Virus record (IMG/VR): IMGVR_UViG_3300042474_001185
Coordinates: 1-64,000 of that record
Origin: a virus
Strand: one strand, 5' to 3'
DNA: 64,000 nucleotides
The notes under the pieces are model-generated. The model did no database searches and was not told the origin of the DNA. It saw only the letters and a program-made list of their open reading frames with translations. Of this stretch, positions 5,574 through 52,332 are shown in pieces (position 1 is the stretch's first letter; every line of letters starts with the position of its first letter). Position numbers and translations under genes: made by a program.

Positions 5574-6294
5574 GACCGATACTCATTCTAACATAGAAAA
5601 GAACTTAATTGAAAGTGCTAGAATTAATAGTATTGATTTAAATATAATTGGTAGAGGACATAAGTGGGAAGGTTTTATTACAAAGTTTAAAATTTTAAAA
5701 GAATATCTTCCTACAATTGAAAGTGAATTAGTTTGCTTAACCGATTCTAGGGATGTATTATATATGTCAGATTCCAAAACAATTTATAATACATTTATAA
5801 AAAAGTTTGATAAAGATTCTATTGTATTTAACGGAGAAACTAATTGTTTTCCGGAGAAAGACTTTGCTCCATTACATCCACATCAAAATAAAAAATACAA
5901 ATATTTAAATTCTGGTTGTGTAATTGGTAACAAAAAATTACTAATTGAAGTAGTAGATAAGTGTTTGGAATTGTATGAAAATTGTAAAATAAATGATGAC
6001 CAATATTTACTTCAGGAAGTATTTCTAAGTGGTGAGTATGGTGATAAATTTACTATTGATTATAATTGCGAAATATTTCAATGTATTTGGGATGAAGAAT
6101 ATGGTAGAAGTAATAATTTTGATTTGGTATATACTAAGGAAGAAATTTTTAATAGATTGACTGATACATATCCATTAATATTTCATTATCCCGGCCCAAC
6201 CTGTACTGGTTCTCAAGTTTGGAAAATTCTTAATAGGAGATACTATAAAATTTCAAACGATTCATATTACAAACAAAAGAAAAATAAAAAATAA
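5545..6294 (+). CDS. PLOD/LH3-like GT-A glycosyltransferase
   Basis: LTDSRDV, IVFNGETNCFP, YKYLNSGCVIG, DDQYLL, IDYNCEIFQC, PLIFHYPG match the GT domain of procollagen lysyl hydroxylases. Confidence 0.75.
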   Translation: MKKIHFLSIETDTHSNIEKNLIESARINSIDLNIIGRGHKWEGFITKFKILKEYLPTIESELVCLTDSRDVLYMSDSKTIYNTFIKKFDKDSIVFNGETNCFPEKDFAPLHPHQNKKYKYLNSGCVIGNKKLLIEVVDKCLELYENCKINDDQYLLQEVFLSGEYGDKFTIDYNCEIFQCIWDEEYGRSNNFDLVYTKEEIFNRLTDTYPLIFHYPGPTCTGSQVWKILNRRYYKISNDSYYKQKKNKK

Positions 6295-7407: not shown

Positions 7408-7409
7408 TT

Positions 7410-9932: not shown

Positions 9933-9936
9933 AATA

Positions 9937-9968
9937 TTTGGTAGTTTCAGGTATTTTTCGTATATTTG
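9937..9968 (+). promoter_or_regulatory. Bacteroidota-type promoter
   Basis: TTTG-N20-TATATTTG upstream of the clamp gene. Confidence 0.75.
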
Positions 9969-10003
9969 TATAACAAATTAAAACATAAATTAAAATTTCA
10001 ATT

Positions 10004-10699
10004 ATGAACAAAGGCAAATTTGATGGTTTCGTTAATCGTTACAACTTAGGTGGTGAGATTGAATCCGTTATGGTAAAATCCGATGACAAGAACTTATCGG
10101 TAAGAATGATTTCAGATGACAAAACCTTATTAGGTGATGTTACAGTAGTGGGTGGTGAATTTCCAAATGGTGAATTTGGTATTTACACTACTTCACAATT
10201 AAAAAGCTTATTGAGTGTATTAGATGACACTATCACTGTAGAAGAAGTGACTGGTGCATTAAGATTCTCAGATAAGAAAACAAAGGTACAATATATGTTA
10301 GCGGCACCATCGGTGATTCCCGCAGTACCTGATTTAAAAGCATTACCTCCATTTGATACGGAAGTTGCTTTGGATGATGATTTTGTAAATACGTTTATCA
10401 AATCAAAAGGAGCATTATCTGATTCGGATACTTTTACATTTACTGTTAAGGGTGGTAACGCTGAGATTATTTTAGGTTATTCATCAATTAACTCAAACCG
10501 AATTTCAACAGCTGTTCAAGCAACTACTAAAGTTGATATTGAACCAATTGCGTTCTCAGCAAAATATTTGAAAGCTATCTTAATGGCTAACAAAGGTTCT
10601 AAAACATCTTCATTGAAAATCTCATCTAAAGGATTATCGCATCTATCATTTACTGATGGAGATTATACTTCAAACTATTACTTAGTAGAAATTAAATAA
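10004..10699 (+). CDS. DNA sliding clamp (gp45/PCNA-like)
   Basis: 231 aa, EFGIYTTSQLKSLLSV motif, two-domain beta-rich pattern; between polymerase and clamp loader. Confidence 0.8.
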   Translation: MNKGKFDGFVNRYNLGGEIESVMVKSDDKNLSVRMISDDKTLLGDVTVVGGEFPNGEFGIYTTSQLKSLLSVLDDTITVEEVTGALRFSDKKTKVQYMLAAPSVIPAVPDLKALPPFDTEVALDDDFVNTFIKSKGALSDSDTFTFTVKGGNAEIILGYSSINSNRISTAVQATTKVDIEPIAFSAKYLKAILMANKGSKTSSLKISSKGLSHLSFTDGDYTSNYYLVEIK

Positions 10700-10704
10700 T
10701 TAAT

Positions 10705-11916
10705 ATGAGCTTTTGGGATACTGAACCACAAAAACCTGTCTTTGACTTTGAATCTGAAAAGACGAAGTTAATAGAAAATATGGACTACCTTATGACAATG
10801 TCTGTTCAAGAACAAACTTTGTATAAGAAGTGGGTTGAATTGCAAGAACCTACAATGATTCAAGCGAAATCCCAAATCGCATCTTATTATGATTTACAAT
10901 GGAAACCAACTGATATCAACAATAAGGAGCTAACGATAAAAGAAATTGAATCGTTAGACCCTTACGTTGAGATTGTTGATGACCCAAAAGAATCTACTAA
11001 ATGGGCAGCGGTAAGACGTATGATTCACACAATGGATTTTACAGCAAACCCTGGTCGTAATGTGAAGATTAATGTAAAGGATAGAGTGAGTGGAAAACTA
11101 TTAGGACAGATTTCATTAGCATCCGATGTTACCGCTATGGGAGTTAGAGATAACTTCATTGGTTGGACTAAGGATAATAAATTTGTTGATGGTAAGTTAA
11201 ACAACACTACTATTGCTTCTACTATTGTATGTACTCAGCCATTAGGTTATAACTTTTTAGGTGGTAAGTTAATCGCTATGATGACAACTGTACCTGAAGT
11301 TAGAAACTATTGGAAATCAAAGTATGATAATGTTTTGATTGCCGTTGGTACAACATCTTTGTATGGTATTCACTCTCAATATAATGGTATTCCACTTTTC
11401 AAAACATTGGGTGAATCCGCTGGTAAGATTAGTTTGAAGCCGGATGATAAATTCTATGACCCTTGGCATCAATGGATTAAGGAAAATAAAAATGATTGGT
11501 ATTTGGAAAACATTACTAGAGAAAGAGCTCGTAATGGTGCTAATATGGGATATGAAGCTAACGGACCTGTTAGTGGTATCAAACAAAAAATATTAGGTCA
11601 AATCTTTAAAGAGTGTGGTATTAAGGCAACTGAATATCATCACGGATTTAAGAGAGGTGTTTATATGGCTATGATGTATGAGAACGGATGTGAGTATCTT
11701 AGAAACGAAATCACCGAAGATAAATTAATCCTTAAAGATAAATTTAAGCAAGGTACAACGTACATCAATAAATGGTGGAAGAAACATGCAATCAGTAGAT
11801 ATACAAAACTACATGATGAAGGAAGAATTAAACCCGAACACTTATTCTACATAGATGCTATTGGAATTAGTTGGGAAGAAATGAAAGCTAAATACCTATC
11901 GGAAGTAGGAAGATAA
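10705..11916 (+). CDS. DUF4338 / Druantia DruA-like protein
   Basis: PGRNVK...LLGQISLASD...RDNFIGW...QPLGYNFLGGKLIAM...TTSLYG..SQYN...LGESAG motif series. Confidence 0.75.
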   Translation: MSFWDTEPQKPVFDFESEKTKLIENMDYLMTMSVQEQTLYKKWVELQEPTMIQAKSQIASYYDLQWKPTDINNKELTIKEIESLDPYVEIVDDPKESTKWAAVRRMIHTMDFTANPGRNVKINVKDRVSGKLLGQISLASDVTAMGVRDNFIGWTKDNKFVDGKLNNTTIASTIVCTQPLGYNFLGGKLIAMMTTVPEVRNYWKSKYDNVLIAVGTTSLYGIHSQYNGIPLFKTLGESAGKISLKPDDKFYDPWHQWIKENKNDWYLENITRERARNGANMGYEANGPVSGIKQKILGQIFKECGIKATEYHHGFKRGVYMAMMYENGCEYLRNEITEDKLILKDKFKQGTTYINKWWKKHAISRYTKLHDEGRIKPEHLFYIDAIGISWEEMKAKYLSEVGR

Positions 11917-11926
11917 AAATAAAATT

Positions 11927-12283
11927 ATGGCAAAAAGTAAAAAAACAAAAAAAGTAGAAGAAGTAATTGATAATACTCAATTAGAACCAATTGGACAAAT
12001 TGGACTAGCACAAGAAAAATTAGAACAATGTGAATGGTGTTTTCAATTTGATGAAGATGAACCACAAATATTTGCTTGGACTGGTGATAATATGAATAAA
12101 GATGAAGAACCTAAAGTAATATTTACGGTATCTAATACAAAAAATTCTTATATTACATTCACTCATAAAAATGGTAAATCATTTAAATTATTTGCTAGAG
12201 AATTAAGCGATGAGGGTAGACAACTTAGAGAACAACAATTAAAAGTAAATTTAGAAAATGAAAGTACGAATAAAGAAGCTTAG
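11927..12283 (+). CDS. Hypothetical protein
   Basis: 118-aa ORF in the replication operon. Confidence 0.6.
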   Translation: MAKSKKTKKVEEVIDNTQLEPIGQIGLAQEKLEQCEWCFQFDEDEPQIFAWTGDNMNKDEEPKVIFTVSNTKNSYITFTHKNGKSFKLFARELSDEGRQLREQQLKVNLENESTNKEA

Positions 12284-18759: not shown

Positions 18760-20826
18760 ATGGCATTAACTAAAAGATTAAGTAAAGGTTCTCCACTTAC
18801 TGCAGCTGAGATGGATGGTAACTTAGATTTTTTACAATCTCAAATTACAGCTGGTTCATCTGGAACTAGTGGAACATCTGGGGTAAATGGTTCACAAGGA
18901 ATATCGGGAACGGGAGGTACATCTGGTACATCAGGTACTTCTGGAACATCTGGTGTAAAGGGTGATTTGTTTACATCCACATCAAATAATAATCATGATA
19001 TTTCATTAGGTTCAAAGACATTTACAATAGCAGGGGGTCTGTCTTGGACACCTGGTCAACAAACTATTATATCTCAAAATGGTAGTAACTACATGACCGC
19101 TACAGTAACATCTTACAATAGTGGTACAGGTCAATTTATTGTAAATGTGGTGTCTGTTGTTGGTAGTGGTACTGGTATAACATCTTGGTTTATAAATACC
19201 GCAGGTGCAACTGGACAGGCTGGTTCTTCAGGCTCATCCGGAACTTCTGGAACTTCTGGAACATCGGGAACTTCTGGAACATCAGGAACTTCTGGAACTA
19301 GCGGAACATCGGGAACTTCTGGGATTAATGGTACATCCGGAACATCAGGAACGTCTGGAACTAGCGGAACATCGGGTACATCTGGTACATCTGGTACATC
19401 AGGAACTTCTGGAACATCTGGAACATCTGGTATAAATGGTAATGATGGAACATTTTTTGGTTCATCTGGAACTTCTGGAGAAAGTGGAACATCTGGAGTG
19501 AATGGTACATCCGGAGTTAATGGAACTTCTGGTGTAAACGGAACATCTGGAACAAGTGGAACAAGCGGTACATCCGGAACATCTGGTATAAATGGTGTGG
19601 CTGGTAGTAGTGGTACATCGGGTACATCTGGAACATCTGGTACATCTGGGACAACTTTTAATTTAAGTGGAACAACCGATAATGGTGTTATTACATCAAA
19701 TAATGGTACAGCCGGTACTGTAGAATCTAATTTATTATTTGATGGAACTCTATTAACAATTAGAGGAAATCTTTCAGCATCTGGAGCATTTACATCATCA
19801 TTAAGACAAGGATATGTTTTAGTTGGTGGTGCTGGTAATGTAACTACGTTAGTAGCAACATCATCATTTGGTGGCGCAGGTACTACAACAACCGATGGGA
19901 TATTCAGAGCAACTGGTTCAATCGTAGCAACAACAAACAATTTACAAATTACAGGTTCTTTGGATATATTAGGACCTATTACGGCATCATTAAGAACGGG
20001 ATATGTTTGGGTTGGTGATAATAGTAGAAGTACAAGACAAGTAGCAACATCATCATTTGGAGCAACTTTGACTGTAGAAGATGGTACTCCTACAATAGTA
20101 CCTAATGTAACTAAAATAATATTTAGTGGAGCATCTGTTACTAATAATGGTAGTGGTCAAATTACTGTAACTGTTACCGGTGGAGGTGGTGGTGGTACAT
20201 CTGGTACATCGGGAACATCTGGCGCCTCTGGTGTAGCTGGTACATCTGGTTCATCTGGTACATCTGGTGCTAATGGTAAAGATGGTACGATGGGTACATC
20301 CGGTACATCTGGTATTAGTGGTGGTGTTAGTTCGGCCGGCTCATCGGGAACTTCTGGAACATCTGGTACATCTGGTTCTAACGGATTTGGTACAAGTGGT
20401 ACAAGTGGTACAAGTGGTATAAATGGTACTTCTGGTGCTAGTGGATTGAATGGAGATGCTGGTACGTCTGGTTCATCTGGAACTAGCGGTACATCTGGTG
20501 TAACTGGTGGAGCATCTACTGGAGGTACGTCTGGAACTTCTGGTACATCTGGTAATTTAACTTTAAGTGGTACAACAAATGATGGTATTTTAACATTTGA
20601 TGGAGGTCTTGTTCAGGGTATAGTTGAATCCGACTTTACATTTAACGCAAGTAGTAAAATTTTAACTGTAAGTGGATCTGTATTAGCATATACATCAGTT
20701 ACATTAAGACCGGTTGATACCCTACCGGCAGGCGCAGTTGGTAAATTAGCATCATATGCTCCGGTATCACCAGCATCGGCATCTTTATATTTCCATAATG
20801 GTTCAGATTGGGTTAAGGTAGTTTAA
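18760..20826 (+). CDS. Collagen-like (Gly-Thr-Ser)n fibre / virion surface protein
   Basis: N-terminal KGSPLTAAEMDGNLDFL anchor motif of phage fibres; three long G-X-Y blocks dominated by GTS; duplicated non-repeat modules (LSGTT..G..T...VES; LR.GYV.VG...VATSSFG). Confidence 0.8.
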   Translation: MALTKRLSKGSPLTAAEMDGNLDFLQSQITAGSSGTSGTSGVNGSQGISGTGGTSGTSGTSGTSGVKGDLFTSTSNNNHDISLGSKTFTIAGGLSWTPGQQTIISQNGSNYMTATVTSYNSGTGQFIVNVVSVVGSGTGITSWFINTAGATGQAGSSGSSGTSGTSGTSGTSGTSGTSGTSGTSGTSGINGTSGTSGTSGTSGTSGTSGTSGTSGTSGTSGTSGINGNDGTFFGSSGTSGESGTSGVNGTSGVNGTSGVNGTSGTSGTSGTSGTSGINGVAGSSGTSGTSGTSGTSGTTFNLSGTTDNGVITSNNGTAGTVESNLLFDGTLLTIRGNLSASGAFTSSLRQGYVLVGGAGNVTTLVATSSFGGAGTTTTDGIFRATGSIVATTNNLQITGSLDILGPITASLRTGYVWVGDNSRSTRQVATSSFGATLTVEDGTPTIVPNVTKIIFSGASVTNNGSGQITVTVTGGGGGGTSGTSGTSGASGVAGTSGSSGTSGANGKDGTMGTSGTSGISGGVSSAGSSGTSGTSGTSGSNGFGTSGTSGTSGINGTSGASGLNGDAGTSGSSGTSGTSGVTGGASTGGTSGTSGTSGNLTLSGTTNDGILTFDGGLVQGIVESDFTFNASSKILTVSGSVLAYTSVTLRPVDTLPAGAVGKLASYAPVSPASASLYFHNGSDWVKVV
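19201..19650 (+). repeat. 9-bp-period coding repeat (GGW ACW TCW / GTS), main block; further blocks near 18850-18960 and 20180-20555
   Basis: Tandem ggaacttct/ggaacatct/ggtacatct units with synonymous variation. Confidence 0.9.
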
Positions 20827-41238: not shown

Positions 41239-43356
41239 ATGGCAAATAAAAAGATAACCGAATTACCTTATATTACAGGAATATCGGGCTCTACGATAGC
41301 GGATAATCCACTAATTAACACTGTGGTTCCTGTGGTTTTATATGGTACTACGAATCAAATAAATATTGAGAATTTCTCAAGGTTTATGAATTTGTACACT
41401 GCTACAACTGGTTCTGCTGGTAATATATTTGTAGGTCCTCAAACTATTAATAATAATGTAACTATTAATGGAAATCAAGCGGTAAATGGAAATGTTAGTA
41501 TTAGTGGTAGATTAACAGTTAATGAAGTTGTTGCTCAATATGAAACGGCATCGATATTATTTTCAACGGGTTCTACAAAATTAGGTGACCAAATAACCGA
41601 TAAGCACGAATTTACTGGTTCAACAAATATAACTGGTTCACTTATTATAAATGGTGTAAACTTTACCGATTTTAGCGCATCTAATTCAACTGTATTTACA
41701 AACTTCAGTAGTTCAAACTCAACTGTATTTACAAACTTTAGTAGTTCTAATTCAACATTATTTACAAATACCAGTAGTTCTATAAACACTACTCTATTTG
41801 CAGTAAGTAGTTCTATAAACACTACTTTATTTGCATTGAGTAGTTCAAACTCAACTGTATTTACAAACTTTAGTAGTTCAAACTCAACTGTATTTACAAA
41901 TTATAGTTCATCGAATTCAATTGTATTTACAAACTTTAGTAGTTCAAACTCAACTGTATTTACAAATTATAGTTCATCGAATTCAACTTTAATAACAAAT
42001 TATAGTAGCTCAATTAATACTACTATATACACAATAAGTGCTTCGATAGATACCACAATATACACAATAAGTGCTTCAATAGATGATACTTTATTTGCGG
42101 TAAGTGCTTCAATAGATTCTACTATTAAGGCTAATTTGGGAGCAACTAATGATGTAGTATTTAGAATTCAACAAGCAACAGCATCAATACAAGAATATAC
42201 TGCATCTTTAAAAACAGCAATATTACCTAATGGTACTAATTTAGATGTTATTGGTAATTTAAGAGTTAGTGGTTCTACTACTTTGGGTGATACTAATACT
42301 GATAAGGTTGAAGTAACTGGTTCGGTTAATGTAACTGGATATGTATCAGCATCTGGTATTAATATCTATTCAACTGGTACTCCTGAAATTCTATCTACAA
42401 ACAATTTAAGATTAACGGCAGATAGCTCGGTTGTAATTACTACTGATAATTCTGGAACAGCAAAGGTATGGGATTTTGATAATGGTGGTACAATAAATTT
42501 ACCGGGCGGAGCTACAATATCAACACCAAATACTGTGGATGTGATTGTTGCAGCTGGTTCGGCTGGGGCAGCTCAATTAGCAAACTTTAATAAGGGTAAC
42601 TACTTTGCAATAAATGATACTCTTGCAACAATTAATGTGGATGCTGGGGCTACAAATAAGGTATGGCAATTTACAAATGTTGGTAGTATTAATTTACCGG
42701 GTTCAATTATTAAACCTGATGGGGGAGAGTATTCAGCATCATTAACATTGACATCTTCATTCCATGCATTTACCGCATCAATAGGTTCTACATCAAATGA
42801 TTATAGAATTGAATTAAATAGTATTGAAGCTTACACTGCATCTTTAAAAACTGCAGCAATTGTATCATCTTCAACGCAAGTTCAAAACTATGACCTATTC
42901 GCATTAAACTCTAACTTATATATTGGTACTGGTTCATTACAAGCACAACTTAATGGTTTAATGGGATTCACTGCATCATTGGATAATACATACGCAACTG
43001 ATGCACAATTACTTCCAATATTACAGGCAACTCGTTCATTGGAATTACATAGTGGTTCAATGATTGGTATTACAAATGAATTGATGAGTTACACCGCATC
43101 ACTTAAAGCAGCAGCAATTGTATCTTCTTCACAACAGGTACAAAACTACTTCGCATTTGCATTAACTTCATCTAATAATAGTTTCTTTGGTGAAAGTACA
43201 TTTACAAATAAAGTTACGCATACAAATGGTTATGTAGTATTATCGCAAGTTTCAGCAAGTTTAAATTTTGTGGATGATGCCGCAGCAGCAATTGGTGGTG
43301 TACCTTTGGGTGGATTATATAGAAACGGAAACTTTATAGTAATTAGAATAGCATAA
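41239..43356 (+). CDS. Tail-fibre-like virion protein with 11-aa repeat stalk
   Basis: MANKKITELP start, GSTKLGDQITDKHEFTGS, 14 x 11-aa repeats, repeated YTASLK, C-terminal DDAAAAIGGVPLGGLYRNG. Confidence 0.75.
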   Translation: MANKKITELPYITGISGSTIADNPLINTVVPVVLYGTTNQINIENFSRFMNLYTATTGSAGNIFVGPQTINNNVTINGNQAVNGNVSISGRLTVNEVVAQYETASILFSTGSTKLGDQITDKHEFTGSTNITGSLIINGVNFTDFSASNSTVFTNFSSSNSTVFTNFSSSNSTLFTNTSSSINTTLFAVSSSINTTLFALSSSNSTVFTNFSSSNSTVFTNYSSSNSIVFTNFSSSNSTVFTNYSSSNSTLITNYSSSINTTIYTISASIDTTIYTISASIDDTLFAVSASIDSTIKANLGATNDVVFRIQQATASIQEYTASLKTAILPNGTNLDVIGNLRVSGSTTLGDTNTDKVEVTGSVNVTGYVSASGINIYSTGTPEILSTNNLRLTADSSVVITTDNSGTAKVWDFDNGGTINLPGGATISTPNTVDVIVAAGSAGAAQLANFNKGNYFAINDTLATINVDAGATNKVWQFTNVGSINLPGSIIKPDGGEYSASLTLTSSFHAFTASIGSTSNDYRIELNSIEAYTASLKTAAIVSSSTQVQNYDLFALNSNLYIGTGSLQAQLNGLMGFTASLDNTYATDAQLLPILQATRSLELHSGSMIGITNELMSYTASLKAAAIVSSSQQVQNYFAFALTSSNNSFFGESTFTNKVTHTNGYVVLSQVSASLNFVDDAAAAIGGVPLGGLYRNGNFIVIRIA
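41671..42132 (+). repeat. 14 tandem 33-bp (11-aa) coding repeats
   Basis: FSSSNSTVFTN-type units grading into ISASIDTTIYT-type units. Confidence 0.9.
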
Positions 43357-43368
43357 AACAATAAACAA

Positions 43369-44484
43369 ATGGCATTAGAATTATCGGGTTCAATAAATAT
43401 AAGTGGTTCAATGACCGCAACAACAATAATAGTATCTGCGCCAGGAGCACCTGGTATGGTATCATCTTCAAATCAATTAGTAGAATTAAATACTGCTACG
43501 GGTTCTTTAATAGGAATCACAAATGATTTGACGGCATATACGGCATCATTAAAAGGAGCAATTGAAGTAAGTGGACAAAATGTAAATGTATTAGGTACTC
43601 TAACCGCACAAGAAATATATACAACTTATGTAACATCTTCAATACTGTTTAAAAGTGGGTCAACTAAATTTGGCGATGATACCGGTGATATACATCAATT
43701 TACAGGTTCATTAAGAACACGTTTTGGTACTAATGAAAACTTACATATTTTCAGTCTTGGTTCTGGTGATATGAGATTATCAGCATTAAATGACACTGCA
43801 AATTCTAATGTTCAATTATCTGTTCAAGCTTATCCATTAATATTTAAAACCGCTGGTGGTCTTGATGTAATACGAATAACAACTGGCAGTATATCTAGTG
43901 GTAGAACTGAAATTACTGGTTCATTTAATGTTAATGGTGAAATTAGAATGGATGGCTCTACATTATTTAGAGGGATGAGTAGTAATACTTTACAATTATG
44001 TGGTGGTACTTCAAGTTCTAATATTAAAATTAATGGTGCAACAGAAGTTATAACACTGGATACCAATGGCGCAACAAGAGTTACCGTCGCCTCATCCGGA
44101 ACAACAACATTTGGTGGTGCAATTGATACTTCCGAAAATTTAATATATTCCAAAAGAACTTCACCTTCTAATGTAACTACTGGTGCAACAACTGTATTTA
44201 CTATAACACAAAAGAGTGGTGAGTTTCAATCAACTTATATGATATCTATTATAGGTCTATATGATTCGGGTGGAGCTAATCAAAATGGATACTATACCGG
44301 AATTGCATCATTCTTTAATGATGGAGCTGTTGCACAGGCAGCTATATCAGGATTACATTCCAACGGATGGTCGGCATCTGCGGCCGCAACATTGGGAGGG
44401 TCTTTTACGGTAACCTTTACAAATGCTGCAGCAACAACAATGACTAATATTAGAATTACTGCGTTAAAAATAAACGCAACTTAA
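43369..44484 (+). CDS. Tail-fibre-like virion protein
   Basis: Shares YTASLK and GSTKFGDD..D.H.FTGS modules with the upstream fibre; Gly/Ser/Thr-rich beta pattern. Confidence 0.7.
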   Translation: MALELSGSINISGSMTATTIIVSAPGAPGMVSSSNQLVELNTATGSLIGITNDLTAYTASLKGAIEVSGQNVNVLGTLTAQEIYTTYVTSSILFKSGSTKFGDDTGDIHQFTGSLRTRFGTNENLHIFSLGSGDMRLSALNDTANSNVQLSVQAYPLIFKTAGGLDVIRITTGSISSGRTEITGSFNVNGEIRMDGSTLFRGMSSNTLQLCGGTSSSNIKINGATEVITLDTNGATRVTVASSGTTTFGGAIDTSENLIYSKRTSPSNVTTGATTVFTITQKSGEFQSTYMISIIGLYDSGGANQNGYYTGIASFFNDGAVAQAAISGLHSNGWSASAAATLGGSFTVTFTNAAATTMTNIRITALKINAT

Positions 44485-44499
44485 TTCAAATAATAACTA

Positions 44500-46083
44500 A
44501 TGAAACAATACAACGTTATTTTAAAAAAGGATGTAGACTATGATTCTTTTTGGAATGATATTGAAAGTGATACCGATGGTGGTAAACTTTATATTCCAAA
44601 TAGAGCAGTAGAATTTACAAACGAAAGATTAGCTTCACTTCGTCAATGTTGGTATTTGCTGACAGATGAAGAAGCAGAATTACTTAGACAGGATGATAGA
44701 GTTTTGGGAGTAGAGATACCGCCAGAGTATAGAGATGATATTGTGATGTTACCTAGAGCAACTCAAACTGGAAATTTTACAAAGACAACATCTGATAGTG
44801 GTACATTTCTTAATTGGGGATTGATTCGTTCATCAAACCCAACTAACGTTTATGGTACTGGTACAACTACCGCATTAAATTATGAATATACCTTAGATGG
44901 AACTGGTGTTGATGTGGTAATTCAAGATAGTGGATTACAGGTAGACCATCCTGAATTTCAAGATGGAAGCGGTAATACAAGAGTTCAACAAATAGATTGG
45001 AGTGATTATAGTGCTGGTTTTGTACAAAGTGCAAATCATTATAGAGATTTTGATGGACATGGTACACATGTAGCTGGTATTGCTTGTGGTAAAACATATG
45101 GTTGGGCAAAAGAAGCAAGAGTATATTCTCAAAAATTAAGTGGTTTGGAAGGTAGTGGGGATAGTGGTACTGGTATTAGTATTACTTACGCATTTGATGC
45201 TATTAAAACTTGGCATACATCTAAAGCAGGTAGTAGACCGACAGTAGTCAATATGAGTTGGGGATATGGAACTTATTATAATACTGTAACATCATTAACT
45301 TATAGAGGAGTAACATATTCCGATGGTAGTACTACTGGAAACGCATCATATAGATTTTCAAACTATGGATTAAATTCATCTTCTGGTTCTCCTGTTGCAA
45401 CTTATATTGCTAATGTAAGAATTGCTTCGGTGGATACTGATATAGAAGAAATGATTGATGCTGGCGTTGTAGTTTGCATAGCAGCCGGTAATAGAGGAAC
45501 TAAAATAGATGTGTTCGGAGGATTAGATTATAATAATTTTGTGACAACTAACTCTGGAATTAAATATTATCATAGAGGAAGTTCTCCATATTCAGATAGA
45601 GCATTAATGGTAGGTTCAATTGATAGTACGGTATATGATGTGAACAATGACCAAAAAGCTACATATTCCGAAACAGGACCTGGAGTTAGTATTTGGGCGC
45701 CTGGCACAAACATTATGAGTGCATGTTCTAATACAAACGCATTTGGTGCACAATCATATTATTTGAATGCATCATTTAAGCAAGTTAATATTAGTGGTAC
45801 TTCAATGGCTGCACCGCAAGTTGCAGGAGTTGCTGCATTAGCATTACAATTAAATCCAACATATACACCAACGCAAGTTAAATCATCTTTAGTAGAAAAT
45901 GCTTCGGATGATATATATACTACTGGAAATACTACGGATTATTCTAACACAAGAAGTTTATTAGGGTCTGGTATAAAAATGTTATATAGCAGTTTTACAC
46001 AGGCACCGATATCTGGTGGTCCTACAGCGTTAGTAGTAAAAGGTGGGGGATTGAGAATAACTGCGGATATAAGAATGGTATAA
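44500..46083 (+). CDS. Subtilisin-like (S8) serine protease
   Basis: Catalytic triad VDVVIQDSG, HGTHVAG, GTSMAAPQVAG; oxyanion AAGN; N-terminal prodomain-like region; no signal peptide. Confidence 0.93.
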   Translation: MKQYNVILKKDVDYDSFWNDIESDTDGGKLYIPNRAVEFTNERLASLRQCWYLLTDEEAELLRQDDRVLGVEIPPEYRDDIVMLPRATQTGNFTKTTSDSGTFLNWGLIRSSNPTNVYGTGTTTALNYEYTLDGTGVDVVIQDSGLQVDHPEFQDGSGNTRVQQIDWSDYSAGFVQSANHYRDFDGHGTHVAGIACGKTYGWAKEARVYSQKLSGLEGSGDSGTGISITYAFDAIKTWHTSKAGSRPTVVNMSWGYGTYYNTVTSLTYRGVTYSDGSTTGNASYRFSNYGLNSSSGSPVATYIANVRIASVDTDIEEMIDAGVVVCIAAGNRGTKIDVFGGLDYNNFVTTNSGIKYYHRGSSPYSDRALMVGSIDSTVYDVNNDQKATYSETGPGVSIWAPGTNIMSACSNTNAFGAQSYYLNASFKQVNISGTSMAAPQVAGVAALALQLNPTYTPTQVKSSLVENASDDIYTTGNTTDYSNTRSLLGSGIKMLYSSFTQAPISGGPTALVVKGGGLRITADIRMV

Positions 46084-46096
46084 AAATAAAAAAGTT

Positions 46097-47542
46097 ATGG
46101 CTAGTGGATATGTTAGTTGGACAACACCTGATGGTAATTCACCTAACCCAGTTTATATAGATGATACAAATAAAAGTGTAGAATTTTCTGCAAGAGAAGA
46201 TGTAGCACCTTATACAATCACTAGGCCAGTCGGTTCAGTAATTTACACATTATCAAATTTAGGAATTATTAATGGTTTTCAATGTTATAGATATGCGGTA
46301 TATGTAACAGCAACTACAACAACTACAACAACTACAACTGAACCACCTGAAATAACTTTAACTACTGTTGGTAGTTGTACTGGTATTGGAATAGAGGGTA
46401 CTGGTAGAGTAGTAGCAAGTGGATTTAGTGGCGGTAGTGGTACATACTCTACTATAAGAATTGGTACATCTATGGAAAACGCATTTGATGCAACTCCAAT
46501 TAATTTAAGTGGAGCTACGTCATACCAATTTGATAATTTAAATAGTGCGGTATGGTTTGTATTAGTAACAGATAGTGCTGGTTATCAGGGATATGCTAGA
46601 CAGATTATAAATTGTACAAACACAACAACAACAGCTGGGCCAACATCAACTACTACTGAAGCATCAACAACAACTACAACATCTACATCAACAACATCTA
46701 CATCAACTACAACAACTACGGGAGCACCGCTATCATTTAATCTTGCATTTGATGCTAGTTCAGGTACAACCGCATGTAGTAATTATCCTGCAACTAATAC
46801 GGCTCTTAGATACGCATATTATACTGCAACTTTAGGAAATGGAATACAATTATTTACATCTACTGCACTAAGTACTGCTGTTGCAAACGGATACTATTCA
46901 AATGGTACGAACTATTGGTTAGCTACATCTGGTATATTGAATTCTCAAGTATCTTGTACTAACCCTTGTGGATTTAATGGAGGAACTGCTGTATATACGG
47001 CACCAACAACTACAACTACTACAACCGCAGCACCAACAACAACAACTGCAGCACCAACAACAACTACTGCAGCACCAACAACAACTACTGCAGCACCAAC
47101 AACTACAACCGCAGCACCAACAACAACTACTGCGGCTCCAACTACAACTACTGCGGCTCCAACTACAACTACTGCAGCACCAACAACAACTACTGCAGCA
47201 CCAACAACAACTACGGCAGCACCAACTACAACTACTGCAGCACCAACAACTACAACCGCAGCACCATCGTTTACAACATACAATATAGGACCAGATTACG
47301 CAAATGCTACATCAGCTTGTACTTCGTTTTCTATGGATTTCCATACAGAAGTATATGCAGCGGAAGCTGCTCCAGCTTTAGTTACACGATTCTACACAGA
47401 TACTGCATTGACAGTAGGATTTGTGGGTTCATCAGACTTTTATGCATGGGCTTTAGCGCCAGAAAGTACAACACCATTTGTTAATGGACAAGTTAGCTCA
47501 TTAGGAAATGTAAGTAATATCACAGGATGTGCTGGTATCTAA
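46097..47542 (+). CDS. Mucin-like Thr/Pro/Ala-rich modular protein 1
   Basis: Three Thr-rich linkers, including 11 x AAPTTTT, separating Cys-bracketed globular modules. Confidence 0.75.
   Translation: MASGYVSWTTPDGNSPNPVYIDDTNKSVEFSAREDVAPYTITRPVGSVIYTLSNLGIINGFQCYRYAVYVTATTTTTTTTTEPPEITLTTVGSCTGIGIEGTGRVVASGFSGGSGTYSTIRIGTSMENAFDATPINLSGATSYQFDNLNSAVWFVLVTDSAGYQGYARQIINCTNTTTTAGPTSTTTEASTTTTTSTSTTSTSTTTTTGAPLSFNLAFDASSGTTACSNYPATNTALRYAYYTATLGNGIQLFTSTALSTAVANGYYSNGTNYWLATSGILNSQVSCTNPCGFNGGTAVYTAPTTTTTTTAAPTTTTAAPTTTTAAPTTTTAAPTTTTAAPTTTTAAPTTTTAAPTTTTAAPTTTTAAPTTTTAAPTTTTAAPTTTTAAPSFTTYNIGPDYANATSACTSFSMDFHTEVYAAEAAPALVTRFYTDTALTVGFVGSSDFYAWALAPESTTPFVNGQVSSLGNVSNITGCAGI
47027..47266 (+). 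repeat. 11 tandem 21-bp coding repeats (AAPTTTT)
   Basis: gcagcaccaacaacaactact-type units with synonymous variation. Confidence 0.92.
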
Positions 47543-47602
47543 TAATGATTGTTATTACACATGTAGTATATAAAATAAAAAATGAAATAATTATAAAATA
47601 GA

Positions 47603-48472
47603 ATGAATGTAACGATAACATATACTTCACTTGGTGTGGATTCTGGATTTAATTATAATCTAACAGCAAATGTAGGTTCAGTAACACCATCAACTGCAAC
47701 AAAAACGGAATTGTTAGCTGGTAAACTTGTGACTGTTGATGATACTGCTACTAATGTTACTATTACATCTACGGGAACTTGTACTAACGCAAGTACGTTA
47801 AGTATAACAGGTATCCCAACAACTACTACAACCACAACTACAACAACGACAACAACTACAACAACTACAACAACTACGGCAGCACCAACTACAACAACCG
47901 CCGCACCAACAACTACAACCGCAGCACCAACAACAACTACTGCAGCACCAACTACTACAACGGCAGCTCCATTAAATCAAGTAAACTATGGATATGATGC
48001 TTCCGATCCTGATGTGGCTTGTACAAATTTTGAAACCTTTACTTTTTTCGCATTGTTTAATAATAATAATGACCCTTCTGCAAATGGTGTAATTGTGTGG
48101 ACAAATAACAACGGAACTGGAACTCCTGCTAATGGATATTATGCTAGAGGTGGTAATGTATGGTATATGACTGGTGGAGTATTAGGAAGTCAAGCAGTAT
48201 GTTATAGTGGAACACCTACAACTACTACAACCGCAGCTCCAACTACAACCGCAGCACCACCACAAGATTATTATGATTATGAAAGATGTGTTAATCCAAA
48301 TGCATATGAGGGTGGAATTTATAGTATTGGCTTAAATTCGGGAGATTCGCCACCATCAACAATTTTAGTGAGTGGAGATTGTCATAGTATAGTATCATAC
48401 ACACCATCGGCATTTGCTAGTTATACAACCCCTGTATATAGCATACCATCACCTGCGTGTGCTTGTATATAA
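47603..48472 (+). CDS. Mucin-like Thr/Pro/Ala-rich modular protein 2
   Basis: Run of 20 Thr then 4 x AAPTTTT; has the same AC...NGYY...C module as protein 1. Confidence 0.75.
   Translation: MNVTITYTSLGVDSGFNYNLTANVGSVTPSTATKTELLAGKLVTVDDTATNVTITSTGTCTNASTLSITGIPTTTTTTTTTTTTTTTTTTTTAAPTTTTAAPTTTTAAPTTTTAAPTTTTAAPLNQVNYGYDASDPDVACTNFETFTFFALFNNNNDPSANGVIVWTNNNGTGTPANGYYARGGNVWYMTGGVLGSQAVCYSGTPTTTTTAAPTTTAAPPQDYYDYERCVNPNAYEGGIYSIGLNSGDSPPSTILVSGDCHSIVSYTPSAFASYTTPVYSIPSPACACI
47819..47971 (+). repeat. Poly-Thr (ACN)20 plus 4 x 21-bp AAPTTTT repeat
   Basis: Read directly from the sequence. Confidence 0.9.
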
Positions 48473-48518
48473 AATTAAAAATATTAATATAAGATAATTA
48501 TATATACAAATAAAGGTT

Positions 48519-49463
48519 ATGAAGAATTTACGTTTCGTATGTGCTCAACCCGCAATTCCATATTACACTTGGCAGGTTGAAGTAATGATACACAATTTTA
48601 TTGAAATGGGAGTTAATCCAAACAATATGGATATAGTTTGTTATGCGGCAAATGGAATAGTACCTCCTGATTGGAGAAAGTTAGCAGACAAATACAACTA
48701 TGTTAGATTTTTCTTTTATGATGATACAAGACGAAATAGAGGATATACATCATCCATAAGACCTAATATATTAAAACAACATTGGAAAGCTAGACCTGAA
48801 ATACATGATGATGTAATTTTTTATCATGATTGTGATATTGCCTTCACAAAACCAATTGGAGAATGGATAACGGACGAAATGATTAATGATAATAATTGGT
48901 ATGGTTCGGATTGTAGATGGTACATATCTTATTCTTATATAAAATCAAAAGGAAATGATGTATTAAGTGCTATGTGTTCACTAATGGAAATTGATGAAAA
49001 GGTTGTTGAAGATAATGAACTAAATGGAATTGGTGCACAATATATAATGAAAGGTATATCCGAAAAATATTGGGAAACAATAGAAATGGATTGTGAAAAG
49101 TTATTTGTTAATATTACAGAGTTAAATAGAATTAAAGTAGAACAAGACCCAACACACCATTCATTACAAATATGGTGTGCTGATATGTGGGCTGTTTTAT
49201 GGAACGCTTGGAAGATGGGATATAAAACAATATGTCATCCTAATTTAGAATTCAGCTGGGCAACATCTCCTGAAAATTTATGGGATAAATGTAATATATT
49301 TCATAACGCAGGTGCTACAACTTCAAAGGATGGATTGTTTTACAAAGCAGAATATATGAACAAATTACCATATAATGAAAATTTAAATATTAAAGAAGGA
49401 ACTACTTCATATGAGTATTGGAAACTAATACAAAAAACAGCAAAAAAATCAGTATTGATATGA
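48519..49463 (+). CDS. GT-A glycosyltransferase resembling peptidyl O-glycosyltransferases (plant SGT1/HPAT, GT96/GT95-like)
   Basis: YYTWQVEVMIHNF, SIRPNILKQHW, YHDCDIAFTKP (DxD), IGAQYIM, WCADMWA, IFHNAG. Confidence 0.6.
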   Translation: MKNLRFVCAQPAIPYYTWQVEVMIHNFIEMGVNPNNMDIVCYAANGIVPPDWRKLADKYNYVRFFFYDDTRRNRGYTSSIRPNILKQHWKARPEIHDDVIFYHDCDIAFTKPIGEWITDEMINDNNWYGSDCRWYISYSYIKSKGNDVLSAMCSLMEIDEKVVEDNELNGIGAQYIMKGISEKYWETIEMDCEKLFVNITELNRIKVEQDPTHHSLQIWCADMWAVLWNAWKMGYKTICHPNLEFSWATSPENLWDKCNIFHNAGATTSKDGLFYKAEYMNKLPYNENLNIKEGTTSYEYWKLIQKTAKKSVLI

Positions 49464-50425
49464 GTAAATCTTATAGTGTATTTGTTGATGATAAATATTA
49501 TTATGACTTTGTAGCATTATATAATAGTTGGAAATATTATGAAAGTAAAATCCCAATTAAAGTTTATATTGCTGGCGATTTGAGTGAAGAAAGAAGAATC
49601 GCTTTGGAAAAAATAGTAAAAGTTATTAACGTAAGTAGTGATGGTTATGGATATCCGCACTTTAAAGGAAAGTACTTATTTAAATGGATTGGCTTATCAA
49701 AGTATATGGATGATTATGAAATACTATTAGATGCCGATACATTATTTTTATCTAATATTGATTTTCTATTTGATGAATTGGAAAAAGGAAAATTTATAGG
49801 AGCTAGAGAGCATGTAGATGTTATACACAATTCATATGTAACCAATGATGAATGGCCAGATGAATGTATGAGAATAAGAAATCAATTGAAAAAATATATA
49901 GGCGATGTGGCTGATAATTATGTAGAAGATTTAATAACACCAACATATAATGCAGGACTTATTGGATTTAGTAAAGTTCATCATAAATTTTTATTAGATA
50001 AATCCATAGAAATATTAACAAGTGATTTTCACACTGATAAAAATCCAATATCACACTTAGAGCAATATATGATGAATTTATTATTACAATTATATTCAAT
50101 AGATATTCATATTTTACCTCAATTAGAATGGATGAATACATGGCATTGGCATCTTAATCCAAAAAAGATACTAAAAATAGAAGATAGTAAATTTGCATTG
50201 TATAATGATGGAGGTAATAAAATAAATTTTTATCATTTTACAGGAGGTATTGGTTTAGTTGACCCGATTGATAAGATAATGAAACCATGCAGAATGCATC
50301 AGATATACGAATCTCAAGTCTACGAATCTCAATTTAAACGAGACGATGTTGAGAAACTTTGGTATAGTAGATATCAAAATCCAGTAATTTTATTATACGA
50401 ACACTTTGCAAATAAAGGGTTATAA
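49460..50425 (+). CDS. GT8-like glycosyltransferase
   Basis: LLDADTLF, YNAGLI, EQYMMN, FYHFTG; start taken as ATG 49460. Confidence 0.75.
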   Translation: MSKSYSVFVDDKYYYDFVALYNSWKYYESKIPIKVYIAGDLSEERRIALEKIVKVINVSSDGYGYPHFKGKYLFKWIGLSKYMDDYEILLDADTLFLSNIDFLFDELEKGKFIGAREHVDVIHNSYVTNDEWPDECMRIRNQLKKYIGDVADNYVEDLITPTYNAGLIGFSKVHHKFLLDKSIEILTSDFHTDKNPISHLEQYMMNLLLQLYSIDIHILPQLEWMNTWHWHLNPKKILKIEDSKFALYNDGGNKINFYHFTGGIGLVDPIDKIMKPCRMHQIYESQVYESQFKRDDVEKLWYSRYQNPVILLYEHFANKGL

Positions 50426-50436
50426 AACAAAAACAT

Positions 50437-51465
50437 ATGACAATAAAAGAACAATTTCAAACTTACAAAATTCATCAATTACAATTAGACCCATATGGTG
50501 TATGTAATGCTAGATGCTGGTTCTGTCCAGTAAAATATAAAGGAAACCCAGCGGAAGGGAAAGAAGTGATGAGTGTTGAATTATTAGAAAAAATAATTAA
50601 AAATCTTATTGATGAAAGAGATAGAGAAGATGGTTTAGTACATAAACATTTTGGAGGATTTTATACAGCACATTATAACGAAATTCTTTTATATCCACAC
50701 TTTGAACAATTATTACAAATCTGCCAAAAATATAGATTATGTTTTATGGTATTATCCAATGGAGTTCCTTTGACTCCTGACAAGGTTGATTTAATTGTAA
50801 AATACAAAGGTGTTGTAAATGGTATATGTCTAAATATTCCAGCATTTGAACCTGAAGTTTGGAGTTTAAGAAGTGGTATAAACATAAAGCAATTTGATAA
50901 ACTAATATCTAATGTAAAATATGCTATGGAACAACTACCTGATATGGTACAAAACAAATCATTCTCAATTCAAATAAATGGTTCTAGTGAACATTCTTTT
51001 AGTGATAAGGGTGGTTGGTTAGATAAGGGTATTGAATTTCCAACTGATATAGATTTGGACCCAGTTACTGGTGAGTTAGCTAAGCAAACCCAAATAGCTA
51101 AAAATTTATTTGAAGGTTTACAAATATATCCATGTGCATCTTTAATTGATAGAGCTGGTTTGTTGGACCATATAATGACTAATAAAGAAGCAATAAAAAG
51201 AAACTTACAGCATGGAGATGAAACTAAAAAAGTTATTGGATGTGGTAATGGTAGAGAAGTAGGTGGTAGACCTGTTGGTTGGATTCATGTAAACGCAGCG
51301 GGTAAAGTATTCCTTTGTTGTAATGACTATGATATGGAAGTTCAGTTTGGAGATTTTAAAACGCAAGAATTAAGTGAATTCTGGGGAAGTACAGAGCACC
51401 AAAGAAAAGTGCAAAAATCATACGATACGATTTGTAGAGGATGTGCTTCGGCTATTTTTGAATAA
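50437..51465 (+). CDS. Radical SAM enzyme with SPASM/twitch domain
   Basis: CNARCWFC; C-terminal C...G.VFLCCND...G...C..C. Confidence 0.88.
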   Translation: MTIKEQFQTYKIHQLQLDPYGVCNARCWFCPVKYKGNPAEGKEVMSVELLEKIIKNLIDERDREDGLVHKHFGGFYTAHYNEILLYPHFEQLLQICQKYRLCFMVLSNGVPLTPDKVDLIVKYKGVVNGICLNIPAFEPEVWSLRSGINIKQFDKLISNVKYAMEQLPDMVQNKSFSIQINGSSEHSFSDKGGWLDKGIEFPTDIDLDPVTGELAKQTQIAKNLFEGLQIYPCASLIDRAGLLDHIMTNKEAIKRNLQHGDETKKVIGCGNGREVGGRPVGWIHVNAAGKVFLCCNDYDMEVQFGDFKTQELSEFWGSTEHQRKVQKSYDTICRGCASAIFE

Positions 51466-51497: not shown

Positions 51498-51968
51498 ATG
51501 ATATATTGGTTTACGGGTCAACCCGGTGCAGGTAAGACGGTATTAGGTACTAAGTTAAAAGACTTTTTACAAACCGAAAAGAGAAATTGGAGAAAGGATG
51601 TATTCCATATTGACGGAGATGATTTAAGAGAATTGACTCTTAATAAAGATTACACAGAACAAGGTAGAATTCAAAACATTAAGAATGCACAATTATTAGC
51701 ATATTTCCTACAAGCTAATGAGTGTGATGTTGTTGTTTCTTTAGTCGCACCATATAAAGAATTAAGAGAGGAATTTAAAAAAATATGTGCGGATAATATA
51801 ATTGAAATTTATGTTCATACTAATCGTAAAAGACAAAGAGAACAATTTAAAGTAGAGGGATACGAAGCACCTGAAACGAACTTCTTTGATATGGATACAA
51901 CATCTGATAATCCAACACAATCTTTTACAAAATTAATACATCACTTAAGAGAAATAGATAAATTATAA
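51498..51968 (+). CDS. cysC: Adenylyl-sulfate (APS) kinase
   Basis: IYWFTGQPGAGKT, IDGDDLR, VSLVAPY...RE, EIYV, YEAPE. Confidence 0.88.
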   Translation: MIYWFTGQPGAGKTVLGTKLKDFLQTEKRNWRKDVFHIDGDDLRELTLNKDYTEQGRIQNIKNAQLLAYFLQANECDVVVSLVAPYKELREEFKKICADNIIEIYVHTNRKRQREQFKVEGYEAPETNFFDMDTTSDNPTQSFTKLIHHLREIDKL

Positions 51969-51972
51969 AGTT

Positions 51973-52332
51973 ATGAAAAAATACGCAATGTACATTGGAA
52001 GATGGCAAAATTGGCACAAAGGACATGAGTGGTTAATAAACCAACAATTAGAAAAAGGTAAAAACGTTTGGGTAGCAATTAGAGATGTTCAGCAAGATGA
52101 GAACAATCCAAAGACGGCTCAACAAATCCTAAAAGAATTATCAGCAGAACCATTTTTTACAAACAATTTTGATAAGATTTTGTTATCTATTATTCCTGAT
52201 ATTGAATCGGTGAACTATGGCAGAGGTGTAGGATATGATGTAATTTATCACGAACCACCTGCAGATGTAGCTGTAATTAGTGGTACTGCTATCCGTAATG
52301 GAGAAATGAAATCAGATGGTAGTTCAACGTAA
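51973..52332 (+). CDS. Minimal HxGH nucleotidyltransferase (cytidylyltransferase-like)
   Basis: IGRWQNWHKGH, YGRGVGY, ISGTAIR. Confidence 0.8.
   Translation: MKKYAMYIGRWQNWHKGHEWLINQQLEKGKNVWVAIRDVQQDENNPKTAQQILKELSAEPFFTNNFDKILLSIIPDIESVNYGRGVGYDVIYHEPPADVAVISGTAIRNGEMKSDGSST

Follow-up and report, generated by a model that had tools for sequence, protein, structure and literature searches.

Introduction

To our knowledge, glycosylation of virions by enzymes that the phage itself encodes has been shown only for mycobacteriophages. Such virion glycosylation was reportedly described by Freeman and colleagues in 2023 (Cell Host Microbe 31:1216) for the mycobacteriophages Che8, Corndog and Myrna. 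Two further papers describe phage-encoded virion glycosylation for the same three phages, in which the glycans sit on the C-terminal ends of the capsid and tail-tube subunits (PMC12619734; PMC12363180). The present work deals with a stretch of viral DNA of 64,000 nucleotides (hereafter, the window), corresponding to positions 1 to 64,000 of the IMG/VR record IMGVR_UViG_3300042474_001185, a record of 79.8 kb that is a fragment of an estimated 37% completeness. The genes of interest lie consecutively on the plus strand between positions 46097 and 51465. The first two, muc1 (46097-47542, 481 aa) and muc2 (47603-48472, 289 aa), encode proteins with threonine-rich linkers that are candidate acceptors of sugars. 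They are followed by GTx (48519-49463), which encodes a soluble glycosyltransferase of the GT-A type proposed to initiate the O-glycosylation of poly-Thr, by the gene of a GT8-like glycosyltransferase (49460-50425) that is a candidate extender of the glycan, and by the gene of a radical S-adenosylmethionine (SAM) enzyme with a SPASM domain (50437-51465). It is fairly probable that GTx glycosylates the poly-Thr linkers of proteins associated with the phage particle, and the interpretation of these genes as a cassette appears to find good support in comparative genomics and in the predicted structures. A search of the literature retrieved neither a description of the GTx family or of a phage pairing of poly-Thr proteins with a glycosyltransferase, nor a report of glycans on the virion proteins of GTx-bearing phages.

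Poly-Thr proteins next to GTx in related loci and cultured phages

The association between GTx and poly-Thr proteins was analysed in 80 loci of IMG/VR that were obtained through GTx and in which open reading frames (ORFs) were called. These loci collapsed into 45 clusters at 90% GTx identity. An ORF was classified as Thr-rich when it contained at least 15 Thr within 30 aa. The ORF located directly upstream of GTx was Thr-rich in 33 of the 42 clusters with sufficient upstream DNA, and a Thr-rich ORF was present within the three ORFs upstream of GTx in 35 of them. Downstream of GTx, a single ORF out of 343 was Thr-rich. The same pairing was found from the substrate side. When a folded domain of muc1 alone was used for the search, GTx was located 0.4-2.4 kb downstream in all five loci that extended far enough.

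A second line of evidence came from cultured phages. A megablast search with the 8.5-kb stretch did not find any match among them, and a tblastn search with GTx gave 77 matches in cultured phage records, mostly of Firmicutes phages, with Mycobacterium phages absent from these 77 records. The poly-Thr protein and the GTx homologue belonged to one gene block in every one of the nine cultured phages inspected, with GTx directly behind the poly-Thr protein in seven. In phiFL1A, the major tail protein ends in ~20 Thr/Ser and the GTx homologue lies directly behind it; in phiCTP1, the same arrangement is seen with gp18, a major tail or tail-like protein that ends in poly-Thr. The capsid and the tail-like protein of Lactococcus phage P1046 both end in T8-T10, and the GTx homologue follows the tail-like protein. 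Lactobacillus phage 521B encodes an Ig-like protein with (TTVKP/TTVAP)n and then the GTx homologue, while in Lactobacillus phage Semele the GTx homologue comes after gp074 and gp075, two Ig-like or 'major tail' proteins carrying poly-Thr tracts. The protein encoded upstream of the GTx homologue in Chryseobacterium phage MA9V-3 has an internal T-rich tract. Staphylococcus phage SA2 has a major tail protein with T8 at its end, and between the major tail gene and GTx lies a short, overlapping ORF that encodes poly-Thr. Finally, in VPE25 and Planchet, GTx is found behind the gene of the major capsid protein, which does not end in poly-Thr, and the poly-Thr tail is carried by the major tail protein, which is encoded ~1.7 kb downstream.

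The adjacency between the mucin-like proteins and the glycosyltransferase, whose conservation in related phages the preliminary description had proposed to examine, is thus widespread both in the IMG/VR clusters and in the cultured phages. Because the related IMG/VR loci have a common ancestry, the decisive point for the link between GTx and poly-Thr is its recurrence in unrelated phages.

Some poly-Thr tracts of the cultured phages lie in another frame. In the Enterococcus phages VPE25 (L089:2750-2980) and Planchet (L084:2780-2990), the 230 nt that separate the major capsid gene from GTx are filled by a long poly-Thr tract in an alternative frame, and the poly-Thr ORF behind the major tail gene of SA2 (L088:2667-2930) is also in an alternative frame. 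Judged from their sequences, these tracts look like programmed-frameshift extensions that would place a poly-Thr tail on a fraction of the subunits.

GTx as a divergent GT-A glycosyltransferase

The sole match of GTx in the libraries was phrog_4417 (3e-60), a family annotated as 'unknown function'. No Pfam match was obtained at E ≤0.1 and no match in NCBIfam, and the comparison with the PDB by sequence, using either the single sequence or a 52-sequence profile, only returned noise such as MotB and TALE repeats. The fold was addressed with an AlphaFold2 (AF2) model built from the 52-sequence alignment, which reached a predicted local distance difference test score (pLDDT) of 97.3 and a predicted template modelling score (pTM) of 0.93. 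Foldseek analysis of this model identified WbbM, the catalytic domain of UGGT, glycogenin, a GT8 protein, LgtC and LARGE1, with E-values from 1e-7 to 1e-5 (best 2.5e-7) and template modelling (TM) scores of ~0.5. A comparison with VIA, which is independent of Foldseek, gave Z-scores of 14.1 for LgtC and glycogenin, 13.8 for the Skp1 alpha-galactosyltransferase, 13.7 for WbbM, 13.6 for the UGGT catalytic domain and 12.9 for GlyE. In this comparison, 97 chains had a Z-score of at least 8 and the best 23 of the 97 were all glycosyltransferases, with 235-242 residues aligned to LgtC and glycogenin. Several of the fold neighbours of GTx work on proteins or protein-bound glycans. As is characteristic of GT-A enzymes, GTx consists of a single Rossmann-like alpha/beta/alpha domain that can be superposed on solved enzymes, and it contains a DxD motif. 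No hydrophobic stretch resembling a signal peptide or a membrane segment was found in the protein.

All the motifs noticed in the preliminary description (Y..WQ...M.H.F, DxD and W..DMW) are present in GTx, where they correspond to Y15..W18Q19...M23.H25.F27, D104-C-D106 and W219-C-A-D-M-W224. In 52 GTx homologues, with identities down to ~30%, residues W18, D106, G172, Q174, M223 and H262 are invariant, and positions Y15, Q19, D104, A173, W219 and W224 are at least 90% conserved. M23, H25 and F27 fall outside the conserved columns. This pattern of conservation was reproduced with a set of 12 sequences that included homologues from cultured phages. The invariant H262 lies in an HNAG motif and may be the counterpart of the C-terminal His that completes the Mn2+ site of GT8 enzymes. 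Metal-dependent GT8-type enzymes are laid out with a DxD motif and a late His. None of the 52 family members matches PF01501 (Glyco_transf_8) at E ≤1. On the basis of the structural model, GTx can be classified with confidence as a divergent, soluble GT-A glycosyltransferase whose nearest structural neighbours belong to the retaining GT8/GT24/GT77 group, and the enzyme is probably retaining and metal-dependent.

The similarity of these motifs to those of plant enzymes that add the first sugar to a peptide hydroxyl had led to the suggestion of a kinship between GTx and SGT1 or HPAT. In its strong form, this alternative states that GTx is a true homologue of the plant and algal HPAT (GT95) and SGT1/SERGT1 (GT96) enzymes and that the first sugar is of the arabinose or galactose type. 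The motif layout in question is indeed present in GTx, the ESM Atlas cluster at rank 2 (score 0.97) has the HPAT family PF23452 on 10% of its members, and 1 of the 52 members of the GTx family matches PF23452 with an E-value of 0.23. Both the HPAT/SGT1 and the GTx groups are, moreover, linked to repetitive tracts of hydroxy-amino acids. However, the PF23452 hidden Markov model does not find anything in the viral record at E ≤10, the remaining 51 family members lack a match to it at E ≤1, and the nearest solved folds that the structure libraries returned are of the GT8/GT24/GT77 type, these libraries having given no GT95 or GT96 match. Kinship with SGT1/HPAT is not supported at the sequence level, and true homology is quite unlikely.

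The GTx family has no curated name. It comprises at least 2,626 clusters at 90% identity (E ≤1e-3) and 868 representatives at 50% identity. Fusions in the family join GTx with a second transferase or tailoring domain, namely GT6, GT2 plus Gly_transf_sug, a GT2/Glyco_transf_7C-like domain, a methyltransferase or a radical SAM/SPASM enzyme, and they count in favour of GTx as the enzyme that starts a glycan. Approximately one third of the listed representatives at 50% identity (P0163-P0268) are two-domain proteins of 480-600 aa, some of which have a GT2/Glyco_transf_7C-like or GT6 domain as their C-terminal half, while in others (e.g. P0163, P0164 and P0124) this half has no Pfam family.

Mucin-like linkers of muc1 and muc2

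The two candidate acceptors combine folded segments with linkers made almost entirely of Thr. muc1 contains exactly 11 AAPTTTT units in addition to T9, T7 and further Thr/Ser tracts, and muc2 contains a T20 tract followed by 4 AAPTTTT units, so that the repeat counts given in the preliminary description are exact. The main mucin-like linker of muc1, (PTTTTAA)x11, is encoded on the plus strand at 47033-47266 and was identified by Tandem Repeats Finder as a repeat with a period of 21, 11.1 copies and 90% matches. All 11 units read PTTTTAA in the protein, while their codons vary at synonymous sites. Besides one T4 in a 688-aa ORF (18760-20826), muc1 and muc2 are the only places of the 79.8-kb record where poly-Thr tracts are found.

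muc1 is organised as beads on a string, with four folded segments of ~75-100 aa and Thr-rich linkers between them. A Cys-bounded domain of ~79 aa (ANGYY...W...G.L.SQ..C) is common to muc1 (residues 209-301, encoded at 46724-46996 of the plus strand) and muc2 (residues 122-215, encoded at 47966-48247 of the same strand), with 34% identity and an E-value of 6e-12. The two proteins present the features of mucin-type PTS regions, that is, tandem repeats rich in Pro, Thr and Ser, with variable copy number, placed between folded domains. Hydrophobic segments at the N-terminus and membrane-like stretches are missing from both proteins (maximum of the 19-residue Kyte-Doolittle mean ≤1.03), in agreement with their earlier description as free of signal peptides. 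In the related loci, the Cys-bounded domain is shuffled among Thr-linker proteins.

Orthologues of muc1 whose folded parts share 74-99% identity (P0391-P0417) differ in the number of AAPTTTT copies, which ranges from 0 to 11 in the manner of a variable number tandem repeat (VNTR). Since such close orthologues carry 0-11 copies, linker length appears to be evolving fast. Taken together, the conservation of the unit at the protein level, its synonymous variation and the changes in copy number are, as far as the sequences can tell, the behaviour of a selected linker.

Proposed mechanism and alternative explanations

In the mechanism proposed here, GTx would transfer the first sugar from a nucleotide sugar to hydroxyl groups in the poly-Thr/AAPTTTT linkers of muc1 and muc2. 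The GTx of related phages would probably also modify other poly-Thr proteins of the particle, such as the orthologue of the S8 protease encoded upstream of muc1. Variable downstream enzymes would then extend or tailor the glycan. In the window, this role would correspond to the GT8-like transferase and the radical SAM/SPASM enzyme, and a kinase and a nucleotidyltransferase encoded further downstream could possibly feed the tailoring enzymes. The outcome would be a bottle-brush linker, stiff and resistant to proteases, that joins the small Cys-bounded folded domains of fibre-like or decoration proteins in a T4-like aquatic phage. A cytoplasmic setting, as already put forward in the preliminary description, agrees with the lack of signal peptides and membrane segments in all of these proteins. 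The core idea of that description, a substrate-plus-initiating-enzyme cassette, is supported by the GT-A fold of GTx, by the conserved neighbourhood seen from the enzyme (33/42) and the substrate (5/5) sides and by the gene order of the cultured phages.

Several observations weigh against this proposal. The structural likeness between GTx and GT8 enzymes is moderate (TM ~0.5, root mean square deviation (rmsd) ~3.8 Å), GTx does not have a sequence-level match to any solved or curated glycosyltransferase family, and glycosylation itself is something that we infer across the whole GTx family. No Pfam or NCBIfam match was obtained for muc1 or muc2 as whole proteins, and their seven separate folded pieces also lacked a Pfam match. 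The proportion of 33/42 overstates independence because the related loci have a common ancestry. In ~8 of the 45 GTx clusters, there is no poly-Thr tract inside 8 kb on either side of GTx, and the large clusters of glycosyltransferase genes in T4-like cyanophages have been interpreted as devices for the modification of the host cell wall or of DNA (PMC12801897). The last two points would be accommodated if the glycosyltransferases, GTx included, modified glycans of the host envelope (lipopolysaccharide (LPS), S-layer or cell-wall polymers) or the phage DNA. Under this explanation, the purpose would be to block superinfection or to alter grazing, and the adjacency of the Thr-rich genes would reflect inherited synteny in a 'glycan factory'. 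This explanation is very unlikely. The sole feature common to the GTx neighbourhoods across the phage groups compared (T4-like aquatic phages, Firmicutes siphoviruses, Herelleviridae and a Chryseobacterium phage) is poly-Thr on a structural-type protein. GTx is co-located with structural-type genes in the window and with head or tail operons in the cultured phages, and in the small cultured siphoviruses it is the only glycosyltransferase, embedded inside the head or tail operon. GTx also lacks a membrane segment. Envelope-glycan transferases working on lipid carriers are, for the most part, associated with membranes.

The weakest link of the particle-glycosylation proposal is the presence of muc1 and muc2 in the virion. 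The context that bears on it consists of the fibre-like neighbours, the annotation of S8 homologues as structural and the Cys-bounded domains, which would be expected for proteins working outside the cell. It is conceivable, although unlikely, that GTx glycosylates muc1 and muc2 and yet both are non-virion proteins, either soluble or host-surface-directed glycoproteins set free at lysis (decoys, adhesins or matrix components, for instance) or proteins with a role inside the infected cell. Such a role would agree with the lack of homology between these proteins and known virion proteins, with their adhesin-like architecture of modular, shuffled domains and hypervariable repeat number, and with the fragmentary nature of the record (37% complete), where no capsid or tail genes are present nearby to anchor a structural module. 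On the other hand, the muc genes follow fibre-like genes, one of which matches an annotated structural protein, as well as an S8 protease gene with cyanophage homologues annotated as virion structural proteins. In addition, the presumed poly-Thr acceptors of the cultured phages are none other than the major capsid protein and the tail-tube protein, and the Thr-rich ORFs of the relatives reach 1,500-2,200 aa, two of them carrying a Gly_rich_2 domain.

Downstream enzymes

The ORF at 49460-50425 gave a Pfam match to Mannosyl_trans3 (2.8e-4), a match to the DxD region of glycogenin-2 (E 0.04) and ESM Atlas clusters with GT8 names (0.97). Its assignment as GT8-like is weak but consistent. The extension of the glycan by this transferase, suggested in the preliminary description, is plausible. 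The gene is present in the window, but it occurs in only a minority of the related loci, and elsewhere GT2, GT25 or FkbM methyltransferase genes are located behind GTx. A constant enzyme next to the acceptor gene combined with variable extenders would reproduce, by analogy, the usual layout of protein-glycosylation loci.

The radical SAM/SPASM enzyme matches the Pfam families Radical_SAM (PF04055, 7e-11) and SPASM (PF13186, 3e-8). It contains the CX3CX2C motif and the Radical_SAM core together with the Cys-rich SPASM domain at the C-terminus. The cysteines of C23-x3-C27-x2-C30 are invariant, and so are the C-terminal C269, C294, C295, C333 and C336. The AF2 model (pLDDT 80) matched the folds of enzymes that act on sugars (DesII, BlsE and BtrN) and of enzymes that act on peptides (anSME, SuiB, CteB and EpeE), all with TM ~0.5, and hence the predicted fold does not separate the two types of relatives. 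Searching IMG/VR with this enzyme retrieved 31 loci. GTx is just upstream in 25 of the 31, in some cases with a GT8 gene in between, and one locus beyond these 25 (L110) has GTx downstream of the radical SAM gene. The pairing persists when both proteins have diverged to 44-49% identity with the copies of the window, and one protein in the database (P0128) is a GTx-radical SAM fusion. No homologue of the radical SAM protein was found in cultured phage records. The pairing with the radical SAM enzyme is the feature most specific to the lineage of the window.

The role of the radical SAM enzyme would be to tailor the sugar or the glycopeptide. A more specific version, in which GTx and the radical SAM/SPASM enzyme form a two-enzyme unit that equips poly-Thr with a sugar tailored by radical chemistry or with an altered bond between Thr and sugar, is speculative and rather doubtful. 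If true, it would mean that large structural glycoproteins of phages undergo a radical maturation step like that of ribosomally synthesised and post-translationally modified peptides (RiPPs). We know of no description of a radical-tailored poly-Thr modification in any virus. Distant homologues of the radical SAM enzyme (40-53%) that are not accompanied by GTx (L116:3805-6730 and L119:4096-5966) adjoin ORFs that look GT2-like by eye. The association of the radical SAM enzyme with glycosyltransferases may extend beyond GTx.

Gene neighbourhood

The cassette is part of a continuous run of plus-strand genes from 41.2 to 52.3 kb, in which every ORF of the module occupies the position previously assigned to it. 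Its gene order, with fibre and protease genes before the muc genes and two glycosyltransferase genes and a radical SAM gene behind them, is also as first described. The module genes are tightly packed, and direct reading of the sequence showed that the start of the GT8-like gene overlaps the stop of GTx (ATGA). A scan for sigma-70 promoters and terminators and for the T4 late-promoter motif TATAAATA did not find enrichment.

The run begins with fib1 (41239-43356, plus strand), which encodes a fibre-like protein of 705 aa rich in Ser/Thr/Asn repeats of the SSSNSTVFTNF type. No significant Pfam match was obtained for this protein (Bactofilin, E 0.087, remained below the threshold) and no PHROG match. 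Its orthologues hold the same position in related loci, and it would have a structural role. The next gene, fib2 (43369-44484, plus strand), encodes another fibre-like protein of 371 aa. Its N-terminal part (residues 11-115) shares 38% identity with a protein of Microcystis phage Mel-JY01 that carries the annotation 'structural protein' (E 1e-6).

The third gene (44500-46083, plus strand) encodes a subtilisin-like S8 protease (subtilase) with matches to Pfam Peptidase_S8 (9e-35) and phrog_9158 (2e-76). Homologues of this protease are found in T4-like cyanophages, namely myoviruses of Synechococcus and Prochlorococcus, and the copy of S-SCSM1 is annotated as 'virion structural protein'. The protease of the window is probably associated with the particle. 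In one of the related loci (L006, 4634-6526), the S8 orthologue is extended by a poly-Thr tract of its own, whose sequence suggests a glycosylated, particle-borne protease.

Behind the radical SAM gene, the plus strand encodes a P-loop kinase of the adenosine 5′-phosphosulfate (APS) kinase type (51498-51968; Pfam APS_kinase, 4e-16) and a small HxGH-type nucleotidyltransferase of 119 aa (51973-52332; NCBIfam, 1.6e-5 and weaker). The two proteins correspond to the two halves of a single family, phrog_10255, and the pair is syntenic in several related loci. Because each protein matches one half of phrog_10255, other phages apparently encode the two as a single fused protein. It is possible that the pair activates a sugar or a non-sugar substituent, and its link to the module is weak. 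True synthesis of 3′-phosphoadenosine 5′-phosphosulfate (PAPS) seems unlikely because the nucleotidyltransferase is a small protein.

Host and lineage

The nearest cultured relative at the nucleotide level is Microcystis phage Mel-JY01, whose PolB gene is 66% identical over 942 nt within positions 4001-12000 of the window, the sole match of this kind. The preliminary description had attributed the particle to a Bacteroidota phage. This host was rejected, since PolB and fib2 lead to Mel-JY01 and the S8 protease leads to the Synechococcus and Prochlorococcus myoviruses. Because the PolB, S8 and fib2 matches all point to T4-like cyanophages as relatives, a cyanobacterial host is more likely than one of the Bacteroidota.

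Significance

The GTx family spans phages of Firmicutes, a Chryseobacterium phage and abundant freshwater T4-like phages, and its members nearly always accompany poly-Thr tracts that are borne by capsid, tail-tube, Ig-like or fibre-type proteins. If the proposed function holds, sugar-coated phage particles would be common rather than exceptional, and part of the 'glycan factories' of aquatic myoviruses would have to be reread as particle decoration. In the large cyanomyoviruses, particle glycosylation offers an alternative reading for at least the sub-cluster of glycosyltransferase genes present in the window. A poly-Thr tract beside GTx would become a simple sequence signature to predict glycosylated virion proteins. 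Therapeutic and dairy phages that encode GTx, such as those of Enterococcus, Staphylococcus, Lactococcus and Lactobacillus, may carry glycan shields, which may in turn affect antibody recognition, stability and adsorption. A soluble cytoplasmic enzyme able to glycosylate a short, genetically encodable tag would also be a tool for glyco-engineering.

Comparison with known systems

The module can be compared with five described systems. In the mycobacteriophages, phage glycosyltransferases act in the infected cell on the structural proteins of the phage, and the same is proposed for GTx. The resemblance extends to the glycan sites, as the presumed acceptor tracts of the Firmicutes relatives of GTx are located at the C-termini of capsid and tail-tube proteins. 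Unlike the short tails of the mycobacteriophage capsid and tube proteins, the acceptors of the window are long internal poly-Thr/AAPTTTT linkers in modular proteins. Further differences are that GTx is carried by aquatic T4-like, Firmicutes and Bacteroidota phages, that a radical SAM enzyme accompanies it and that the system is known here from genes. What distinguishes the module from known virion glycosylation is an unnamed enzyme family, a long acceptor of nearly pure Thr, a radical SAM partner and a different set of phage groups.

As regards the enzyme itself, GTx shares the whole-chain GT-A fold with the GT8-clan enzymes LgtC (1g9r), glycogenin (1zcu, 3u2t), UGGT of GT24 (6fsn), Skp1 alpha-galactosyltransferase (6mw8) and GlyE (5gvv), with Z-scores of 12.9-14.1 and 215-243 residues aligned. 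It also shares with them the DxD after the fourth strand, and its conserved late His may correspond to theirs. In the cytoplasm or the ER lumen, several members of this set add sugars to proteins or to glycans already bound to protein. In contrast, the identity is 6-12%, Pfam Glyco_transf_8 does not match, TM is ~0.5 with an rmsd of ~3.8 Å, and GTx has extra helical insertions at approximately residues 182-232. Plant HPAT (GT95) and SGT1/SERGT1 (GT96) add the first sugar to hydroxy-amino acids in repetitive peptides, as proposed for GTx, and the order of their motifs, as given in the preliminary description, is loosely similar. Unlike GTx, they are Golgi membrane proteins, and the Pfam HPAT model does not detect GTx.

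With regard to the acceptors, muc1 and muc2 resemble the animal mucins, substrates of the GT27 polypeptide GalNAc-transferases, in having Pro/Thr/Ala repeats of variable copy number between folded Cys-containing domains, and a bottle-brush would be expected in both cases. The differences are that GTx has no Pfam match, so that neither a GT2/GT27-type signature nor a ricin-type lectin domain is detected, that there is no secretory pathway or signal and the reaction would be cytoplasmic, and that the repeats are almost pure Thr. The Ser-rich-repeat adhesins of Gram-positive bacteria, which are glycosylated by GtfA/GtfB and by GT8 extenders such as GlyE, share with the module the soluble cytoplasmic enzymes encoded beside the substrate gene, the long repeats of hydroxy-amino acids and the variable extender glycosyltransferases, and GlyE itself matches the fold of GTx (Z 12.9). 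In that system, however, the initiator is a GT-B enzyme (GT4) with a chaperone-like partner, whereas GTx is GT-A; the adhesins are Ser-rich and leave the cell by accessory Sec export, whereas the linkers of muc1 and muc2 are Thr-rich and no export genes accompany them.

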